From the IMG/VR virus record IMGVR_UViG_2802429231_000003: a stretch of 8,242 nt of DNA, one strand, 5' to 3'. Shown here in pieces: positions 835-8,242 of the stretch (within the stretch, counting starts at the first letter, position 1; each line of letters opens with the position of its first letter). Position numbers and translations under genes: made by a program. Source of the stretch: a virus (taxonomy: Duplodnaviria; Heunggongvirae; Uroviricota; Caudoviricetes). The notes beneath the pieces were generated by a model. The model saw only the letters and a program-made list of their open reading frames with translations. It did no database searches and was not told the origin of the DNA.

Positions 835-2976
835 TTATTCGGCTTCTTCTTCCTCCTGTTCAGGTGCGAAAAGCAGGATATATGCACGCTGCCGGGCGTT
901 ATTCTGATGTTTCAGGCGCGGTGTTCTGCCCTGCCAGCCCCTGCCGCTGGTGGGTTTCTTAAGCATTCCCGCATCATGCAGTACCTGCGCCACTGCGTCC
1001 TTGTTAAAGCCTCTGGCAACGTGTTCTTTAAACGGTGCCGGAAGCACGTAAAACAACATCGGGTCATCATACCGTTCGCCCTTGTCCCGGTAGCCCATCA
1101 GTTCACCGATGTGGAGATCTCGCGGATCATAATCCACGGGTGCAAATTTGCTCATGCCCCAGGCGTTAAGAAATGCCACTGCCTGTTCTGCAATCTGCTG
1201 GTGTTCTTTGTTCCCGGTGCCGAACTCTTTCACCCAGGCATTAAAGCTGCGCTGTACCGCATCCCGGCACCCTTGCGCATCCCATCCGGTGATATGGCCT
1301 GACAGCACCAGCGCCGCTTCCATGATGGCGAATCGCTCCCCGACGCGGTGGACCTGCTCGCCGTAGTTGTCCGGGATAAGCCCGCGCCAGCGTTCCCTTG
1401 CGGCTTCTGTGGCCTCCCGCGCCGCCTGCTGGTGGTCTGCCAGCCAGCGCACCCATTCACGCCCTGCGGTGCCATGATGCGCCATACAGGCCGCTCTGAG
1501 CGCATCAGCATGAGCTTTACCGGACGGCAGCCCGTGAAATTCCGTGGCCTTCTCCAGGGGCACATTAAGCAGGCGCACCAGTTGCCCCGCTTTGGGCTTC
1601 ATGCCTGCGGCTGCAAGAAAGGTTTCTATGTCCATTTCTCCGGTACTGATGGCGACAGTTCGCCAGCGTTTAAGCTCCCGGTTACCGCCTTCCTTCGCGC
1701 CCTGTAGTTTCCCCACACCGTTAAACAGCGTATAGGCAGACGTTGCCACGGCGCGGGCGTCACTGCCCTGACCAACCTCATCCAGGGGCATCAGGCCGTC
1801 ATTGTGCGCCTGTGCCTCGTTAGCGATACCCAGCGCAGTACCGTACCAGGTGAGGCGCAGTAAATCCGGGTTACCGTACAGACTGCTGGCGATGTTTGCT
1901 GTGGTGGTTTTCCCGGCGCTGGACTGCTGGAAGAAATGGACGCCGAAGCCATCCGCACCCACCAGCCCGACCAGCGGCGCGGCAAGTGCTGCCGCCACGC
2001 CCAGCATCATGGAAGGATTACCCGCCACCAGCGTGGCGACGTTCTCCCGCCAGCTCTGCGCCGTACCTGCACAGGTGTAACCGGAAGCCGTCGCGCTGTG
2101 ACCGTAAAACAGGACCTTCCGGCCCGCCTCGCCGATGATTTCCCCGTCCGGCATGATGTACGCGCCGTGCTGCCATCCGGTCAGGCTGGTGATGTGCCAG
2201 AGTTCCCCCGCGCCACTGCGCAACAGGTGATCGGCAAGGATGGCGCGAAAGTTGTTTTTAGCCGTGACAGAAAGCCCACCAGCACGTAACCGCGACCAGC
2301 CTTCATGCTCGCCAGTATCACGCATGGGGATCGCTTCGGTGTGCGCTGTACGCGCGCCTGCGGGCTTCCAGCGCAGAACAATATACCGCTCGGACTCATC
2401 CGCACCGATGCCCACCACCTCAAGAGGATCACACAACCACTGACCGGGGCGGGTAACTTCCCCGGTCTGCTTATCCATCTTTGGCGTTACCCAGTACAGA
2501 CCGTCAGGGCGGGCATCCACACAGGGGGCCAGCTCATCCACCGGCGCAGGTTTGCCCTCTGCCCGTTGTACCTCTGCCACCAGACTTTCTTCCCCGCGTT
2601 CGTGCTGTTCGCGTATCCGGTTCAGGTAGTCGCGCCAGTCTTCCGGGTGCTGGTCAGGTATCCCCTGGTATAACTTCGCTTCCTGTACGCCCGCCAGCGC
2701 CAGCTTTTCAGCAATGGCGTTAATCTGAATGGGCTTAATATCTCCGGCATGATAGAGGCGGGCGCACTTACGCCCGTTATCAATAATGCGCAGGTTCGCC
2801 AGGTCTGCCAGTTGCTTTGGCCCCAGCCAGACAGGCGGCGTTTTATCTGCGGCAACTTTTAATCCCCAGTCCTCTTCCCATGTTTTAGCGTGAGCGAAGG
2901 CATCAGCCCCGGCAAAGATAACCACCTCAACATGTTTATCTTTCGGTTGATGCTTAAGGTTCGGTGCGTTCTTCAT
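835..2976 (-). CDS. Replication initiator, primase/helicase-like P-loop NTPase (713 aa); DUF927-type replication protein as found in P4-like/PICI elements
   Basis: Long intact ORF; Walker A-like motif QQSSAGKTT; RBS GGGAGG about 9 nt upstream of ATG; start overlaps upstream gene stop (ATGA); iterons directly downstream; acidic C-terminal tail. Family assignment is from recalled sequence character, not a search. Confidence 0.8.
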   Translation of the reverse strand: MKNAPNLKHQPKDKHVEVVIFAGADAFAHAKTWEEDWGLKVAADKTPPVWLGPKQLADLANLRIIDNGRKCARLYHAGDIKPIQINAIAEKLALAGVQEAKLYQGIPDQHPEDWRDYLNRIREQHERGEESLVAEVQRAEGKPAPVDELAPCVDARPDGLYWVTPKMDKQTGEVTRPGQWLCDPLEVVGIGADESERYIVLRWKPAGARTAHTEAIPMRDTGEHEGWSRLRAGGLSVTAKNNFRAILADHLLRSGAGELWHITSLTGWQHGAYIMPDGEIIGEAGRKVLFYGHSATASGYTCAGTAQSWRENVATLVAGNPSMMLGVAAALAAPLVGLVGADGFGVHFFQQSSAGKTTTANIASSLYGNPDLLRLTWYGTALGIANEAQAHNDGLMPLDEVGQGSDARAVATSAYTLFNGVGKLQGAKEGGNRELKRWRTVAISTGEMDIETFLAAAGMKPKAGQLVRLLNVPLEKATEFHGLPSGKAHADALRAACMAHHGTAGREWVRWLADHQQAAREATEAARERWRGLIPDNYGEQVHRVGERFAIMEAALVLSGHITGWDAQGCRDAVQRSFNAWVKEFGTGNKEHQQIAEQAVAFLNAWGMSKFAPVDYDPRDLHIGELMGYRDKGERYDDPMLFYVLPAPFKEHVARGFNKDAVAQVLHDAGMLKKPTSGRGWQGRTPRLKHQNNARQRAYILLFAPEQEEEEAE

Positions 2977-3215
2977 TCCACCGCCTCCCTGCGGGTGGCA
3001 GCCAGTGCCACGGCATCGCGGGTAAACTCCCGGTGAAAGCGATCCACCGGATATACGCAGGGGTGAGAGTAGCCATCACGGACATATGTCACGCGGTTGA
3101 ACTGATTCGCGGTAATCACTACCGCACACCCGGATTTATCGCGCCATTTATCACCGGGGCGAATTTCGGGTAAAGCCTGCCCGCTGGCAGGAACGCCAGT
3201 TATTTTCTTGGACAT
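2973..3215 (-). CDS. Hypothetical small protein (80 aa), translationally coupled to the replication gene
   Basis: ORF with AAGG RBS about 11 nt upstream; stop overlaps primase start (ATGA); no recognisable domain. Confidence 0.6.
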   Translation of the reverse strand: MSKKITGVPASGQALPEIRPGDKWRDKSGCAVVITANQFNRVTYVRDGYSHPCVYPVDRFHREFTRDAVALAATRREAVE

Positions 3216-3227
3216 TATTTTTTCGCC

Positions 3228-3425
3228 TTATGCTGCTGGTGGTGTAACGGTAAATCCGGCTATTTTTGCCGCTTCCAGAAAACCTTCCAGGTTACTGACA
3301 AACTCGTTTTTCTGTAGCGTATAGCCGCCTGTGGCTGTGCCTTTTTCCACGTTAACCAGGACAGGTCCGGTGAAGTCCGGTCGCGCCGGAATGGTAACTG
3401 TGAAGGTCAGGGAGTGATTATGCAT
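3228..3425 (-). CDS. Hypothetical small protein (65 aa)
   Basis: ATG at 3423-3425 preceded by GGAGG; ATG overlaps the upstream gene stop (ATGCATAA). The longer track ORF to 3491 would need a non-ATG start and overlap the upstream gene by about 70 nt. Confidence 0.6.
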   Translation of the reverse strand: MHNHSLTFTVTIPARPDFTGPVLVNVEKGTATGGYTLQKNEFVSNLEGFLEAAKIAGFTVTPPAA

Positions 3426-3960
3426 GGTCTGCCTCCACATACGCGACACCCGCCACATCAAGCGCCTGTTTAAAACGGCAAAGCATTTCACGGCGTTCGC
3501 GGTACAGGGCCAGCACGAAGGGATCGAGTGTGGCTTCGATATCGGCAGGATAGCGACGGACGAAAGGCAGAAGGACGACGCCCTGACAGCGGTGTGGCGT
3601 GGAGGATTTCACCTGGTCAGCCAGCATATTCACCAGGTCATGTAACAGCCCGGTAAGCGGCTGGATCATGTCACGGGGCAATGTATCGGCCACCAGCGCC
3701 TTTGCCAGCGTGAGGCAGTATTCCAGCGTCAGGCTTTCATCAGGCCAGTACTCTGACAGATCGGATGCGGTATTGTCCGGCAGGGGAAGCGCCGTATCCG
3801 CATGGTATGCCGCTGTCAGTGCCTCCAGTGAGGTGACAAGGGATTTGCACATCGCCCGGTGTTCAGTGCGGCTGTGGTATTCCATCAGCCTGCACACCAG
3901 CGCGGCGCACTCACCTGCCAGATGAAACAGGTCAGCGCCTGCGGGGATCGGCTTATTCAT
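3418..3960 (-). CDS. Hypothetical protein (180 aa), member of the replication operon
   Basis: C-terminal 180 codons of the 619-aa track ORF; ATG at 3958-3960 preceded by a G-rich RBS and overlapping the upstream gene stop (ATGAATAA); the remaining 5' part of the track ORF is low-complexity antisense of the plus-strand genes. Confidence 0.65.
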   Translation of the reverse strand: MNKPIPAGADLFHLAGECAALVCRLMEYHSRTEHRAMCKSLVTSLEALTAAYHADTALPLPDNTASDLSEYWPDESLTLEYCLTLAKALVADTLPRDMIQPLTGLLHDLVNMLADQVKSSTPHRCQGVVLLPFVRRYPADIEATLDPFVLALYRERREMLCRFKQALDVAGVAYVEADHA

Positions 3961-4150
3961 GATGCGCCCCCGTAGCGGGCAGACGTCCAGCGAAGAAGCA
4001 GACACTTTCCCGCGCAAGCTGGCGGCGGGCTTCATGCTCGCTATCTGCGGCGATATGGTGGATTTTTGCGGTGATAGTCGGGCAATCGCGGCGAACGGCA
4101 GCGATAAGCCAGATGAATCGCGGGTGTGACGGGGTAAGGGTAGCGACCAT
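3953..4150 (-). CDS. Hypothetical small protein (65 aa), first gene of the replication operon
   Basis: ATG at 4148-4150 with GAGG about 9 nt upstream; stop overlaps next gene start; position analogous to kil-like first genes of the P4 left operon (analogy only). Confidence 0.55.
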   Translation of the reverse strand: MVATLTPSHPRFIWLIAAVRRDCPTITAKIHHIAADSEHEARRQLARESVCFFAGRLPATGAHHE

Positions 4151-4314
4151 AGCGGTGGCCTCGTGAGTAGGTTTATTAACCTCACCAGACCGCTGCTAAA
4201 CGGGGTGGTGAGACGTAACAGGGTTAGCAGACCGGCACTCACGAAACCGGCAGGCGCGAACGCCTCCCCGTTACGCCCCACCATAATACGGACGCAACAT
4301 GGCATTTTACGGAC

Positions 4315-4346
4315 AAAAAAAGACCGCGTTACAGAATGGTCGCGGT
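4315..4346 (-). terminator. Putative intrinsic terminator in the leader of the replication operon (minus strand)
   Basis: Minus-strand RNA ACCGCG-(12 nt loop)-CGCGGU followed by C and seven U (top-strand A run 4315-4321); lies between the divergent promoter region and the first operon gene. Confidence 0.45.
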
Positions 4347-4404
4347 TGTCCGCGCGAGTATTCAGGCTGCTAAACCCGGCCAGTGGATTTACACCAGCGG
4401 GAAA

Positions 4405-4434
4405 AGCATAGCGCCGGGCGGCAGTGTCAGGCAA
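4405..4434 (-). promoter_or_regulatory. Candidate sigma70-type promoter for the leader/replication operon
   Basis: On minus strand TTGCCT (top 4434-4429), 18-nt spacer, TATGCT (top 4410-4405); each hexamer is only a 4/6 match. Confidence 0.2.
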
Positions 4435-4445
4435 GGGATTTTTTT

Positions 4446-4480
4446 GTGATGTAATCACTTTCATCAGTACGTTACTGATG
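4446..4480. promoter_or_regulatory. Two adjacent operator-like dyads upstream of the plus-strand two-gene module
   Basis: GTGAT-gta-ATCAC (4446-4458) and CATCAGTA-cgt-TACTGATG (4462-4480), the latter with perfect 8-bp arms; just upstream of TATGAT (4482-4487) and the RBS AAGGAGAGG. Confidence 0.35.
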
Positions 4481-4512
4481 TTATGATTTACATCAACAAG
4501 GAGAGGCAAATT

Positions 4513-4794
4513 ATGTCTGCTGTTGAGTTGATGAACCGACGGATTCAGATTGCGGATAATGCTTTCGCCATCATCCGCATCTTGCAGGTTGACCCGTCCA
4601 TTCTCGGTAGCCAGCATCTGTATAAATACAGTCTGGCCTATATTGTGGATGGCGTCTGCGTGATGCGCTACGACAACGAACGGGGAAATGGCGACCACAA
4701 ACACATTGGCGATCGTGAATTTCCGGTCACGTTCACCAGCATACAAGACCTGATAGCCAGCTTTCAGGAAGATATCAACCATCTGAGGAGATGA
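4513..4794 (+). CDS. Small protein (93 aa), possible toxin-like partner of a two-gene module (tentatively TumE/DUF6516-like)
   Basis: ATG at 4513 preceded by AAGGAGAGG; motif RYDNERGNGDHKH; followed 4 nt later by an HTH gene with its own RBS. Family assignment is from memory of the motif and unverified. Confidence 0.65.
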   Translation: MSAVELMNRRIQIADNAFAIIRILQVDPSILGSQHLYKYSLAYIVDGVCVMRYDNERGNGDHKHIGDREFPVTFTSIQDLIASFQEDINHLRR

Positions 4795-4798
4795 CATT

Positions 4799-5158
4799 AT
4801 GAGAGTGTTAACCGTCAGGATTATGTCTATCGCCGATGCTTTCCAGACAACGATGGAAGATGCCACTCGCGCTATGTCAGGCGTGGTTGTTGGATCTGAT
4901 TTGATATTCCCCAGCGTTGAGCAGCTTGCCAAAACGATGCTTGCGCCCAATCGCTGGCAAATTATCAGAGTGATGAAAGGTGCAAAACCCGTTTCTATTC
5001 GTGAGCTGGCCCGTCTGGTAAATCGCGATTTTCGCGGTGTATACAACGATGTACAGGCACTGTTGAACGGCGGCGTTCTGGATCGGGATGGCGATAAAAT
5101 CGTATTACCGTATGACCGCGTACACATTGAGTTTAATTCGGACGACGCCGCAGCGTAA
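4799..5158 (+). CDS. Winged helix-turn-helix DNA-binding protein (119 aa), putative regulator/antitoxin-like partner
   Basis: GGAG RBS 9 nt upstream; HTH-like segment PVSIRELARLVNRDFRGVYNDVQALL followed by a wing-like segment; strong terminator downstream. Confidence 0.7.
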   Translation: MRVLTVRIMSIADAFQTTMEDATRAMSGVVVGSDLIFPSVEQLAKTMLAPNRWQIIRVMKGAKPVSIRELARLVNRDFRGVYNDVQALLNGGVLDRDGDKIVLPYDRVHIEFNSDDAAA

Positions 5159-5177
5159 CGGTACGAGGCGTTTATCG

Positions 5178-5209
5178 GGGCGTGGATATCCTCTGCGCCC
5201 TTTTTCTTT
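5178..5209 (+). terminator. Intrinsic terminator after the plus-strand two-gene module
   Basis: 9-bp stem 5178-5186/5192-5200 (two G-U wobbles), 5-nt loop, then TTTTTCTTT. Confidence 0.65.
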
Positions 5210-5273
5210 GTCCGTATGTCAACTTTTGACAGGTTGAGGCCAGACACGGGCAAGCTCTTATTCTGAATGCTTA

Positions 5274-6098
5274 TCATTGAACTACCTCCAGGCGACGGGC
5301 TAACCAGCGCTGAGACAGGCGCAGTAATTCTGTCTTGCGCTGGTGGTAGTCCTGCCTCAGTTCTATTAGCGTGATATTGGTCTGCTCAAGATAAGAAAGG
5401 TGATCGAGTTGTTCCTCGCTCATATGGTCGCGGGCTTCGCCGGTGATGCCGTTCGCCTGCGCCCACTGTTTCGCTGTCATTCCACCCAGCACGATCCGCG
5501 CCAGCATGTTCGATTCAGTTGTGTAGTGATGTGGTTGTGTGGCCTTGCCCTGTTCCTGCCTCACCACTTCCAGCGCGGCGCACATCGGCTTAAAGTAACT
5601 GGCGGCGGTGATACGGGCCTTAAGTTCTTTGCGCAGCGCAGCGGCTTTTAACGGGGCTTCCTGCTGTAATGTTTCCTCGCAGTGAATGAAGTAACGACGA
5701 ACGGCGCGGCCCTGCTCGTTGCGTTCGACCATCGCCAGCTCTTTAGCCATATTCAGCGAAAGCAAATACTCCCGGCTTCGTCTGTCCCCACCGCGTCTTG
5801 TTTCCCACGCCTTTCCATCATGGTTATTATTTGAGCTTTGATTCCTGAAATTTGAGGAATCAAAAAGGGTGTAGTCACTGTCAGCAATGAAACCATATTC
5901 CTCAATGCGGCCCTTAATCCATGTGGAAAAGTCATTTCCCACACCCAGCGCGGCATGTAACTCCTTTGCACTTACCACGCTGGCAGGCTGGCTACCGATA
6001 ATGCCGGAAATAACCGGGATGAGTTCGGCAAAATTATTCTGGTTATGGTTTTCAGGGTGAGCGATGCCCTGACCGTGAAGGCCATTAATTAATTTCAT
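5274..6098 (-). CDS. Phage antirepressor, AntA/AntB N-terminal domain family (274 aa)
   Basis: Segment YLLSLNMAKELAMVERNEQGRAVRRYFIHCEETL matches the conserved core of AntA/AntB antirepressors as recalled; AGGA RBS; 14 nt downstream of the preceding gene on the same strand. Confidence 0.75.
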   Translation of the reverse strand: MKLINGLHGQGIAHPENHNQNNFAELIPVISGIIGSQPASVVSAKELHAALGVGNDFSTWIKGRIEEYGFIADSDYTLFDSSNFRNQSSNNNHDGKAWETRRGGDRRSREYLLSLNMAKELAMVERNEQGRAVRRYFIHCEETLQQEAPLKAAALRKELKARITAASYFKPMCAALEVVRQEQGKATQPHHYTTESNMLARIVLGGMTAKQWAQANGITGEARDHMSEEQLDHLSYLEQTNITLIELRQDYHQRKTELLRLSQRWLARRLEVVQ

Positions 6099-6112: not shown

Positions 6113-6544
6113 TCAGGCGGCGTTCTGGTTATCCGGGTACATCATGAGGATGCTTTCGATAGTCTCCGGGGTAAGGCTCCAGTAGCCACCAGTACTGGCA
6201 CACTGATTGACCAGCTTAATGACCTTCATCACGTCCTCACGGCAGGCAAAGCGGTAGCGAAGATGTGCCCCTATACCATCGGCATTGGCTTCTTCTGAAC
6301 GCGCCAGGCAGATATCAAGGCGGCGCTCCAGTTCACTGGCGTAATTGCGGCCTGATGAAAGATGGCAGTGGCGCAGAATATCGTTTTCAGTCCAGCCACC
6401 AGCACCAGTGCAAAGCATATAAACGCGGGCGCGGTGCTTCTTCGGTGTGCGTCTCGCTTGTGTGCGGCTGGTGGTGGGGATAACATCAGACGGGCGAATA
6501 TCTGTGTTAGCCGCCTGCTGTTCGGGGCGGTTTTCTTTTTTCAT
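6113..6544 (-). CDS. Hypothetical protein (143 aa), co-transcribed with the AlpA-family gene
   Basis: ATG overlaps the AlpA gene stop (ATGA); basic N-terminal region; no recognisable domain. Confidence 0.6.
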   Translation of the reverse strand: MKKENRPEQQAANTDIRPSDVIPTTSRTQARRTPKKHRARVYMLCTGAGGWTENDILRHCHLSSGRNYASELERRLDICLARSEEANADGIGAHLRYRFACREDVMKVIKLVNQCASTGGYWSLTPETIESILMMYPDNQNAA

Positions 6545-6753
6545 TGCGCCACCTCGCCGCGTGATTCAAATACACGATCATTTATCCATTTATTAACTTC
6601 GTCTTCAAACCAACCAACACGGCGTAGGCCAATGCGAAATCCTCGCGGAAATTCGCCAGCGTTAATCATCTCCTGAAATGCGCTATCTGATTTAATACGT
6701 AAAATCATTTTTACTTCTTTTTTGAGAAGGATCTTTCTTTCTTCTGATGTCAT
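6541..6753 (-). CDS. alpA: AlpA/Vis-family phage transcriptional regulator (excisionase-like HTH), 70 aa from ATG
   Basis: Pattern ILLKKEVKMILRIKSDSAFQEMINAGEFPRGFRIGLRRVGWFEDEVNKWI resembles the AlpA-family HTH; the track ORF extends to 6771 only with a TTG start, so the first ATG (6751-6753) is preferred. Confidence 0.7.
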   Translation of the reverse strand: MTSEERKILLKKEVKMILRIKSDSAFQEMINAGEFPRGFRIGLRRVGWFEDEVNKWINDRVFESRGEVAQ

Positions 6754-6816
6754 TTGGTTAATCTCATTCAATACCGATTAATTCCGGCGGTGTAGGAATA
6801 CTGGCATGATGAGATA

Positions 6817-6890: not shown

Positions 6891-7619
6891 TTAAGCCACT
6901 TTTGATGGGGTGCGATCGATTGGGCAAGCGATTTTTTCGATAGCTTTGGCTGTCGATTCAACAAATCCGTAACTGGTTTTAAGCTCTGTAATTATGGCCT
7001 GCTGGTTAACTCTGGTGCCATTATTGTTAGGGTCATACTCTGCCCATTCACAATTCCTTATCCTGATAGCCTGATACAGAGGGTCTCTTTCTACGCCTCC
7101 GATAAACTTACCCAAGTGAAGAGGATACGATTTTTTTAAAACCTCAATATCTCTTTCTAGTGCGGTAATTTTATTCTTAAGTTCGGATATCTCTTGTGAC
7201 TCTTGATTTGTACGCGATGGCGGCTGTAATCCCACCTCGTAGGGGTGGTTAATTATAATGGCATTATATTCTGTGAACTCATTTTCAACCCAAGTCCAGA
7301 TGTCCTTTGCCAGAAAGTTAGCATCTACTATATGTGTGTTGATATTAATATTATCATTTTCAACTAAGCTTAGGATATCAATTGGGAGATCCCATGAAGG
7401 GTCAGAATATGTGTAAGCTTTCAGTGGGATAACTTCTTTCAATTTAATAGCTTGACATATAATTTCTTTAAATGATGAAGCTTCTTCATCGCTAATGTAG
7501 CCACTGATAATATTTGGATCAAGAGTATCGTACTCACCGGATAAGCCTGCCATAACTAAAGCTGCTTGCTCTAAAGTCACAATTCTGAGTCGTTTAATAT
7601 GGAAAGGTAAATCAATCAT
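6891..7619 (-). CDS. Hypothetical protein (242 aa) in a markedly A+T-rich gene; candidate accessory/cargo gene
   Basis: Intact ORF with GAGG RBS about 8 nt upstream; composition visibly much more A+T-rich than flanking genes; predicted coiled-coil-like segment (ESQEISELKNKITALERDIEVLKK); no recognisable domain. Confidence 0.7.
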   Translation of the reverse strand: MIDLPFHIKRLRIVTLEQAALVMAGLSGEYDTLDPNIISGYISDEEASSFKEIICQAIKLKEVIPLKAYTYSDPSWDLPIDILSLVENDNININTHIVDANFLAKDIWTWVENEFTEYNAIIINHPYEVGLQPPSRTNQESQEISELKNKITALERDIEVLKKSYPLHLGKFIGGVERDPLYQAIRIRNCEWAEYDPNNNGTRVNQQAIITELKTSYGFVESTAKAIEKIACPIDRTPSKVA

Positions 7620-7919
7620 TACGCCACCTCACGCCCTCTATCATGGAGGCCGCGCCAACCCGCAGAGGTGTACGGGAATTCGGGAGCTACCCTAGACGCG
7701 GCTTATTCTGTTACCGTCGGTTATCTTCGGTTTTGCCCATGATAGATCGTTTTCTGAACGCTTGCATTGCAAGACTGTGTGAATAATCAGCTTGTGTTTT
7801 TATACAGCTCTAATTCCTCTCATTCCTGTTGCTAGGGTCACTCCCGTGGATGCGGTTTCCACAAATTCCCCCCACCAGCGCATCAACACAATACGCTTTT
7901 CAAGATAGTTACTCCGGTT

Positions 7920-8242
7920 ATCAATTTGCGCGTAAGACCTCGCCCAATCGGGCGGGGATATAAGCGCGGTAACTGCGTAACATTTTTTGACCTTCGTCAA
8001 TATGGCTTACATTTTTCAGTGTATTTTGTAAGCCTATGAAACGCGCCTATAAATACAGATTCTATCCAACACCCGATCAGGTTGAGCTTTTGGCTCAAAC
8101 GTTCGGGTGTGTGCGTTTTGTCTATAACTCGATCCTGCGTTGGCGCACCGATGCGTACTACGAACGGCAGGAGAAGATCGGCTATACACAAGCCAGCGCT
8201 CGCTTAACAGCACTGAAAAAAGAGCCAGATTTTGCCTGGCTC
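7920..8242 (+). mobile_element. Left end of an IS200/IS605-family insertion sequence (tnpB-only type or tnpA lost), truncated by the window edge
   Basis: TnpB N-terminus begins at 8036; subterminal hairpin CGCCC-AATC-GGGCG at 7941-7954 (extendable to 7938-7957) about 80 bp upstream, consistent with an IS605-family left-end structure; left boundary approximate. Confidence 0.5.
8036..8242 (+). CDS. tnpB: IS200/IS605-family transposase accessory protein TnpB (OrfB), N-terminal 69 codons, partial
   Basis: Translation MKRAYKYRFYPTPDQVELLAQTFGCVRFVYNSILRW matches the conserved TnpB/OrfB N-terminus; in-frame stop at 7988-7990 upstream; ORF runs to the last base, so it is absent from the complete-ORF track. 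Confidence 0.8.
   Translation, partial: MKRAYKYRFYPTPDQVELLAQTFGCVRFVYNSILRWRTDAYYERQEKIGYTQASARLTALKKEPDFAWL

Follow-up and report, generated by a model that had tools for sequence, protein, structure and literature searches.

Here, we analysed a stretch of 8,242 nucleotides, hereafter the window, from the IMG/VR virus record IMGVR_UViG_2802429231_000003 (Caudoviricetes). The 8.2-kb window is a P4-like island of the phage-inducible chromosomal island (PICI) type. At 4447-5211 its plus strand carries two genes, tumE and a tumA-like partner, together with their putative operators, promoter and terminator. We consider it likely that this segment forms an entire type II toxin-antitoxin cassette which belongs to the TumE-TumA superfamily and represses itself. 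It is nested inside an eta-like open reading frame (ORF) of the opposite strand whose frame remains open across it. Judged from sequence, the cassette is a cargo of the island and is also found in lambdoid prophages. The system is of a known toxin-antitoxin kind, and its nested arrangement is new and apparently selected.

The first gene of the cassette, tumE (4513-4794, plus strand), is preceded by a ribosome-binding site (RBS), AAGGAG, at 4498-4503 and encodes a putative toxin of 93 amino acid residues that belongs to the TumE/DUF6516 family. An alternative start at 4483, which would give a protein of 103 residues, was rejected. This ATG has no RBS, lies within the -10/operator region and is missing in the Pantoea relatives, so the start at 4513 is taken as the real one. 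The protein matches the Pfam family PF20126, 'Toxin TumE' (formerly DUF6516), with an E-value of 3.2e-14 and a score of 53.1 bits against a cut-off of 23.4 bits. The match is full-length, with residues 11-88 aligned to positions 1-80 of a model of 81. In PHROGs the protein falls in phrog_16135, a family of unknown function, and it has no match in NCBIfam or in PADLOC. An identical 93-residue protein is present in an Escherichia coli (E. coli) draft genome, with the UniRef name 'toxin-antitoxin system TumE family protein'; the exact protein of the window occurs in draft or metagenome contigs only. We found 87 close homologues, nearly all of which have 93-95 residues. The RYDN...HKH motif, which the initial annotation of this DNA had associated with TumE-type (DUF6516) proteins, is formed by R52-Y53-D54-N55 and H62-K63-H64 and is invariant in 18 homologues with identities down to 43%. 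Invariant residues are concentrated in the segment C49-V-x-R-Y-D-N-E-x-G-x-G-D-H-K-H-I65, and the invariance of this RYDNE...GDHKH core is more suggestive of an active site than of a surface that only binds. The predicted structure of TumE, with a pLDDT (predicted local distance difference test) score of 94.9, consists of six β-strands and a C-terminal α-helix; as modelled, it would be a shorter version of the family fold.

The second gene (4799-5158, plus strand) encodes the tumA-like partner, a protein of 119 residues that we describe as a putative antitoxin and autorepressor. It has its own RBS, GAGGAG (4785-4790), located within the end of tumE, and it starts 4 nt past the tumE TGA, an arrangement which indicates that its translation is coupled to that of tumE. 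The partner matches the winged-helix family PF25212 (HVO_A0114) with an E-value of 3e-21, above the curated cut-off of Pfam, and it weakly matches ArsR/MarR proteins both by sequence and by fold. Its predicted structure (pLDDT 82.3) is composed of a less confident N-terminal region of about 45 residues and a C-terminal winged helix of the ArsR/SmtB type. In PHROGs it belongs to a family of unknown function, it has no NCBIfam match, and against PADLOC-DB 2.0 it gave only weak, generic matches to CasR/CARF winged-helix models (E >= 1e-3). Its database names go no further than 'HVO_A0114 family putative DNA-binding protein' or 'transcriptional regulator'. Purifying selection acts on both genes, whose ratios of nonsynonymous to synonymous substitution rates (dN/dS) are 0.03-0.21. 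The partner diverges faster than the toxin; in Pantoea the identities are 73% and 85%, respectively. The initial annotation had recognised this two-gene module, a 93-residue protein followed by a winged helix-turn-helix protein, and had associated it with the TumE family; the two ORFs on the same strand and the profile searches with PF20126 and PF25212 bear it out on both counts.

Close relatives of tumE were found in genome contigs of about 590 species from many phyla. The order of the pair was counted in the best 80 loci, where two contigs ended too early; in all 78 assessable species genomes an HVO_A0114 partner lies directly downstream of tumE on the same strand. The gene order, which had been left open, is therefore settled as toxin first, and the same order is seen in all viral contigs with enough sequence. 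A profile search gave 1,564 cluster representatives at E <= 0.001, and among the best 150 of these most have about 90-100 residues. A related Salmonella island has the cassette in the same slot. Further copies are located in the early region of E. coli lambdoid prophages, between Rha genes, and in a Pantoea satellite, a Rhizobium prophage and 38 IMG/VR contigs. No match to the cassette was obtained by megablast in 5,426 complete E. coli genomes, and a distant blastn search against phages and plasmids returned short fragments of the toxin core only. The approximately 590 species-level genome hits and the 1,564 cluster representatives define a very widespread TumE subfamily, characterised by the toxin-first order and a winged-helix putative antitoxin.

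The TumE-TumA superfamily, which targets translation and has been experimentally validated, goes back to Durairaj et al. 2023, Nature (PMC10584680). In that study, six gammaproteobacterial DUF6516 proteins from subcluster 1a halted the growth of E. coli and were neutralised by their neighbours, and one of the six, the TumE of A. tepidum, lowered the incorporation of 35S-Met (PMC10584680). All subclusters are predicted to be toxin-antitoxin systems, with antitoxins that are diverse and unrelated; in cluster 1 the toxin gene is generally downstream of that of its partner, and one partner family is a remote RelB homologue (PMC10584680). A literature search returned nothing on TumE after the 2023 paper, and neither its text nor the tables consulted state which subcluster carries the HVO_A0114 partner. 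The protein of the window is, by its sequence, a new member of this known superfamily. Because the assays covered subcluster 1a only, we infer the toxicity of the 93-residue, toxin-first subfamily, and with it that of the window protein, from the family.

What such a cassette does for its carrier can be read in several ways. Many type II toxin-antitoxin systems act by abortive infection, and satellites carry defence hotspots. As a defence cargo, the cassette would respond to infection by a helper or competing phage that lowers the partner or frees TumE in another way, upon which translation would stop and the infection would be aborted. We regard this role as possible but unlikely. It would fit the carriage of the cassette by satellites and prophages (Salmonella, lambdoid prophages of E. 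coli, Pantoea, Rhizobium and the 38 IMG/VR contigs), and it would fit the variability of the slot, which in E. coli relatives holds other small cargo (YlcI/YnfO) or nothing. Against it, no PADLOC model matches TumE and the partner has only the generic winged-helix matches, we found no paper linking TumE to defence, and the pair occurs in about 590 species genomes of many phyla, where a mobile-element context is not established. Where a toxin-antitoxin or abortive-infection module had been proposed for this DNA, the assignment to a toxin-antitoxin family stands and the defence part finds no backing in PADLOC. As a claim about role, defence is compatible with our best explanation, a self-repressing TumE-TumA-superfamily cassette nested in the eta-like ORF.

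The regulatory region of the cassette was parsed by comparing the regions upstream of about 100 related but distinct cassettes. Two 20-bp palindromes are found upstream of the genes in most of these loci, 26-29 bp apart where the spacing was read by eye. In the window, operator O1 (4447-4466; TGATGTAATCACTTTCATCA) reads TGATGT-N8-TCATCA, with one mismatch, and operator O2 (4476-4495; TGATGTTATGATTTACATCA) is a perfect palindrome, TGATGT-N8-ACATCA, and the sole perfect match to the operator pattern in the window. The initial annotation was right in giving the module two palindromic operators of its own, and its parsing of them, as GTGAT..ATCAC plus CATCAGTA..TACTGATG within 4446-4480, has to be revised. 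The second of these dyads is the junction of the two 20-bp units, and the operator region extends to 4495. The same junction accounts for a terminator-like match at 4462-4480, which we rejected. A sigma-70 promoter for tumE-tumA, read from the sequence and placed by homology with the family consensus, is predicted at 4458-4487 (plus strand). It has a -35 element CTTTCA (4458-4463), an 18-bp spacer and an extended -10 element TGtTATGAT (4479-4487), with a predicted transcription start at about 4494-4496. O1 overlaps the -35 element, and O2 overlaps the extended -10 element and the predicted transcription start. A promoter proposed by a simple scan at 4487-4514 was rejected, as its -10 element would overlap the start codon. 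Downstream of the partner gene there is an intrinsic terminator (5177-5211, plus strand) with a 10-bp stem that includes six G-C pairs (5177-5201) and is followed by TTTTTCTTTGT. Its fold, at -23.9 kcal/mol (z = -3.15), agrees with the strong terminator noted initially, and it is one-directional, as the minus-strand transcript has no U-run.

The consensus of 64 distinct non-enteric loci is GTTGgatTatTTGACAACA-N8-TGTTGTTATTaTCTCCAACATG. The first palindrome holds a canonical -35 element, which is TTGACA in 54 of these 64 regions, and the second palindrome holds a TG-extended -10 element with a TATTaT-like hexamer. In most non-enteric relatives (L024-L099; for example L058, 5940-6003) the tumE start codon ends O2 (CCAACATG), about 7 nt past the -10 element, which implies a leaderless mRNA. 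Enteric cassettes, including that of the window, have an added leader of about 17 nt with an RBS, which was apparently gained in this group. The half-sites fall into clade types, TGATGT/ACATCA versus TGTTG[T/G]/[A/C]CAACA, and base 3 of the half-site tracks residue 78 in the recognition helix of the partner. Phe78 goes with A in 20 of 20 distinct loci and Val78 or Ile78 goes with T in 75 loci, with 3 further loci having mixed sites, so that the pairing holds in 95 of 98 loci. The Phe/A type is found in unrelated clades, namely the enterics, Edwardsiella, Bosea and two GC-rich viral contigs. Among the available evidence, this co-variation argues most strongly for binding of the partner to the O1/O2 sites. 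The comparison provides an explicit operator for the subfamily, TG[A/T]TG[T/G]-N8 in two copies over the -35 and the -10, and a directly testable specificity rule of one residue and one base, in which Phe78 is paired with A and Val/Ile78 with T. The block common to the window and the Pantoea satellite is exactly 4447-5158, the operators and both genes, and thus defines the exchangeable cassette.

In the mechanism that we propose, transcription would start at the promoter buried in O1/O2, tumE would be translated first and its coupled partner second, and the one-way terminator at 5177-5211 would end the message. The partner, presumably as a dimer, would bind the palindromes O1 and O2; since these cover the -35 element and the extended -10/transcription start, the pair would shut off its own promoter. 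Conserved palindromes over the -35 and the -10, the mark of autoregulation in type II systems, were indeed found in silico. By analogy, the N-terminal 45 residues or so of the partner would neutralise TumE. Free TumE would block protein synthesis as described for the A. tepidum protein, possibly via an RNase activity such as that proposed for the family.

The pair could also be non-toxic, consisting of a winged-helix repressor and a small co-factor or sensor that regulate the immunity switch of the island, for example the divergent promoter of the isrK and C4 RNAs about 25 bp away. The subfamily is shorter than the validated toxins, which lie outside it; O1 is found at -49 to -68 of the predicted isrK start; and the cassette stands directly back-to-back with isrK/C4 in seven lineages. 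These points are outweighed by others, and we hold a non-toxic role to be quite improbable. The operators of the family consensus hold the -35 and -10 elements of the cassette itself, the same cassette with its operators also occurs in non-enteric genomes and at a large distance from any C4 RNA, the core RYDNE...GDHKH does not vary, which suggests an active site, and the Pfam match spans the full model. The narrower proposal that the dyads mainly serve the divergent isrK/C4 promoter was rejected, because the same operators occur without a nearby C4 and carry the -35 and -10 of the cassette.

The initial annotation had the module as stand-alone, located between two operons. This description does not hold. 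An eta/Ash-like ORF of 619 codons (3418-5277, minus strand) links both operons and encloses the cassette in antisense orientation, within a minus-strand stop-free frame that spans 3421-5385. The ATG of this ORF (5277-5275) overlaps the stop codon of antA as ATGA, with a GGAGG 7 nt upstream. From there, the ORF runs antisense through tumA, tumE and the operators, and then through an internal promoter, isrK and C4. After C4 it runs in frame into a 180-residue gene (3418-3960, minus strand), which makes its C-terminal part. The internal promoter, predicted at 4405-4434 on the minus strand, resembles the P4 promoter PLE and would serve the immunity RNAs. It has a -35 element TTGCCT (4434-4429), an 18-bp spacer and a -10 element TATGCT (4410-4405), and its start, as read from the sequence at about 4398, coincides with the 5' end of the isrK match. 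The isrK / c4-a1b1-like RNA, a seqA-like target region of the immunity RNA, is located at 4317-4411 (minus strand); the scores for isrK and c4-a1b1 in the window, 41.6 and 40.4 bits, are both under the gathering scores. The same pair with the same spacing is found in P4, and it is above threshold in loci L012, L016 and L026. The C4 RNA, an antisense RNA like the CI immunity RNA of P4, matches RF01695 at 4201-4288 (minus strand) with 79.3 bits against a threshold of 45 bits (E = 9e-15).

In nine of nine loci with the nested arrangement, the eta-like start overlaps the stop of the upstream gene, as ATGA, GTGA or TTGA, and several of these starts have a GGAGG-type RBS. The upstream genes encode AntA, Bro-N, Rha or others. 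All loci share one phase through C4, which corresponds to that of the Pfam family Phage_ASH, and an IMVGR motif is common to all. Phage_ASH ('ash family protein') matches the translation of the isrK/C4 region, in one phase, in loci L012 (7614-7901), L026 and L100 (3263-4330) and in P4 (L139; 8168-8821); therefore, part of this 'protein family' overlies RNA genes. The annotated long ash/Rha fusion ORFs include the eta-like leader. For annotation this is a warning, as long island ORFs named 'ash family' or hypothetical can hide RNA genes and genes of the opposite strand.

The function of such an ORF is best understood from P4. When P4 was checked directly, its eta frame (8168-8821) was found to begin with an ATG that overlaps, as ATGA, the stop codon of the alpA homologue ORF88, and to hold the same three Rfam elements in the same order as the window. 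The biology of the P4 eta/kil - CI - seqA region (Forti et al. 1999) is taken here as summarised in PMC10111431. A constitutive promoter lies inside eta, and CI and seqA bring about early termination of its transcript (PMC10111431). Full-length Eta can be translated only from the upstream late promoter, eta being coupled to the alpA homologue, and its translation prevents the immunity-specific termination (PMC10111431). In the window, ribosomes of the alpA-antA operon would likewise pass over the cassette, and transcription would be carried on into the icd-primase operon. The antisense frame would thus be kept stop-free by the same anti-termination need as that of P4 eta.

To evaluate whether the frame is open by chance, nested and non-nested cassettes were compared. 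Of all cassettes, those of seven lineages have a divergently oriented C4 at 190-226 nt upstream of tumE; these lineages share at most 79% nucleotide identity and mostly 55-62%. All seven have zero antisense stops across the cassette. When the synonymous codons of both genes were resampled, 3-5 stops were expected, and the probability of an open frame was 0.0005-0.033 per lineage and 0.0005 for the window itself. Nine enterobacterial cassettes located outside an eta ORF have 2-10 antisense stops, as expected, and these include the closest relatives of the window cassette (85% toxin identity). At positions where the non-nested relatives have an antisense stop, the window mostly uses a synonymous codon that avoids it. 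CCG is used instead of CCC or CCT before Tyr, GTA instead of GTT before Tyr or Gln, and CTC, CTG or TTG instead of TTA or CTA; at one site the stop is avoided by a Val/Ile replacement, which is not synonymous. A broader rule, that every cassette between minus-strand genes keeps the frame open, was rejected; Pantoea-type satellites do not, because there the cassette is outside the eta ORF. A viral contig, L124, carries two tandem C4 copies (4339-4425 and 4727-4811) downstream of its cassette, with the same open frame and phase.

A long antisense frame could be a by-product of composition without any function. Codon-aligned antisense frames tend to hold few stops, three GC-rich cassettes away from C4 are also open, and the isrK/C4 part could stay open through conservation of the RNA sequence alone. 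However, the frame is open in seven of seven diverged lineages in spite of these low probabilities and closed in nine of nine enterobacterial cassettes elsewhere, in nine of nine loci its first codon overlaps the stop of the upstream gene, several with a GGAGG-type RBS, the stops are mostly avoided by synonymous codons, and cassette-free relatives have an open frame as well, across another cargo gene. Chance was rejected on the resampling, the start overlap and the stop-avoiding codons, and we regard it as highly improbable. The open antisense frame is, from these comparisons, apparently maintained by selection, and the reason would be that ribosomes must follow RNA polymerase from the upstream operon across the stretch. 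A frame of about 650 nt over two conserved genes would then be kept stop-free by synonymous codon choice, a rare and clean case of selection for translatability, not for a protein product, across overlapping genes of opposite strands.

The E. coli relatives without the cassette have a frame of 356-441 codons that is open from the stop of antA or DUF4222 to icd/Ash. In three of these cassette-free loci (L001, 5671-6996; L003, 5695-6873; L002, 5212-6387) an open minus-strand frame of 391-441 codons leads from the antA stop to icd, and in L001 and L003 this frame runs antisense across another plus-strand cargo gene, a member of the YlcI/YnfO family. The beginning of the eta-like ORF seems to serve generally as a site for cargo on the opposite strand. 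A satellite cargo cassette can occupy the opposite strand inside a P4-type eta ORF, and this suggests that the slot has an unusual rule of entry.

The orientation of the cassette could itself be functional, with the cassette wired to the immunity switch. In the quiescent state, only the PLE-like promoter and the divergent tumEA promoter would fire, and the pair would repress itself. Upon activation of alpA-antA, the eta-like ORF would be transcribed and translated head-on through tumA-tumE, and collision or double-stranded RNA would silence the tumEA message. The labile partner would decay, and TumE would be released exactly at induction to stop host or helper translation. We consider this scheme improbable; if it were true, the eta ORF start would be a slot that takes opposite-strand genes only if their antisense frame can stay open.

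The island genes other than the cassette pair are all on the minus strand, as the initial annotation had noted when it described the module as transcribed opposite to every other gene. They comprise a 242-residue gene (6891-7619), alpA (6541-6771), a 143-residue gene (6113-6544), antA of the AntA/AntB antirepressor family (5274-6098; PF08346, E = 9e-24), an Icd-like gene (3953-4150), the 180-residue gene, an 87-residue gene listed between the latter and DUF4222, the DUF4222 gene (2973-3215) and a DUF927 primase gene (835-2976). For the 242-, 143- and 180-residue proteins, which are conserved in the island, searches of Pfam, NCBIfam and PADLOC gave no match and PHROGs gave nothing meaningful. 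ATGA stop/start overlaps couple neighbouring genes at 6541-6544, 5274-5277 and 2973-2976. The C-terminal part of AntA (residues 178-263) matches the PADLOC candidate-defence model PDC-S22 (E = 2.4e-9). Directly downstream of the primase gene, at 527-813, there are 12 exact copies of GTTGTCCC on both strands, with 0.3 expected by chance; these repeats are probably iterons of an origin/crr type, like the type 1 repeats beside the P4 alpha gene. An int-alpA RNA (RF02996; 7635-7702, minus strand; 43.1 bits against a threshold of 35.8 bits) is located between the integrase remnant and the 242-residue gene, and this element is also found in the Salmonella locus L007. Of the integrase only the last 39 codons are left (7803-7919); they share 87% identity with residues 375-413 of the homologue in Salmonella. 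The start of an IS605-family tnpB (HTH_OrfB_IS605) follows at 8036. The island has probably lost its mobility in this copy.

The segment 3952-5246 of the window, which comprises icd, C4, isrK and the cassette with its terminator, shares 94% identity with segment 9440-10734 of the Salmonella island L007, whereas its flanks are 75-82% identical. The antA segment has no match in that island, which has a Bro-N gene in its place. The difference between the 94% block and its flanks indicates that the cassette and the immunity region recently moved together, and the icd-C4-isrK-tumE-tumA-terminator block looks like a recent recombination unit. This joint travel, the classic type II architecture with autoregulation and the location on excisable elements would suit an addiction module, in which cells that lose the island would retain stable TumE but not its labile partner, so that the segregant is killed or arrested. 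However, integrated islands are rarely lost, which makes the benefit doubtful, and this copy is already without a functional integrase. We regard stabilisation, like defence, as possible but unlikely.

Several points weigh against a self-repressing TumE-TumA-type cassette nested in an eta-like ORF. On the side of the toxin, the model of TumE has six strands and one helix compared with the seven strands and two helices of the family (PMC10584680), and no solved or viral structural relative was found. The validated toxins of subcluster 1a have about 110-130 residues compared with 93 here, and the RNase activity of TumE is only a proposal even for the assayed members (PMC10584680). The validated antitoxins are small (about 75-110 residues) and of another family than the 119-residue HVO_A0114 winged-helix partner, and the toxin-first order here is the reverse of what is general in cluster 1. 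On the side of regulation, the -35 element of the cassette is weak, with three of six positions, and the simple promoter scan missed the assigned promoter and flagged the unlikely one instead. The binding of the partner to O1/O2 and to TumE is something that we infer. On the side of the nesting, the eta-like ORF of the window has no Pfam Phage_ASH match at E <= 0.01, and agreement is limited to phase and motif. We postulate that the antisense frame is translated, and that this is linked to Rho-dependent termination, by analogy with P4. In locus L116 (3662-4351) the frame is open across the cassette and has stops just outside it, before isrK/C4; this lineage may have a copy that has decayed, or it may not follow the nesting rule. 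Finally, since the integrase is truncated in this copy, the regulation of the island may be decaying.

The cassette can be compared with several known systems. In HigBA, MqsRA and HicAB the toxin gene precedes that of the antitoxin, as in this cassette, and an antitoxin with a folded DNA-binding domain represses the operon at palindromes that overlap the promoter. With the validated TumE-TumA pairs it shares a toxin that matches PF20126 over its full length, a bicistronic organisation and a DNA-binding neighbour; its operators and its nesting in a satellite ORF are not described for those pairs (PMC10584680). With the immI locus (c4-icd-ant) of P1/P7 and the Gifsy-1 isrK locus of Salmonella, the window shares a C4 RNA with a1/b1-like targets upstream and an Icd-like gene thereafter. 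Unlike in these loci, the genes downstream in the window are replication genes (DUF4222 and the DUF927 primase). We know of no toxin-antitoxin cassette described in the immI or Gifsy-1 isrK loci. The parallel to the eta/kil - CI - seqA region of P4 lies in the long ATGA-started ORF with an internal promoter, seqA-like and CI-like RNAs and the same phase. The upstream gene to which the ORF is coupled is antA in the window and the alpA homologue in P4, and the C-terminal 180-residue part in the window has no family match. The same coupling, RNA content and phase show that the window ORF has the architecture of eta. From the eta start to seqA there are about 65 nt in P4 and about 866 nt in the window, and these approximately 800 extra nucleotides are the toxin-antitoxin cassette on the other strand.

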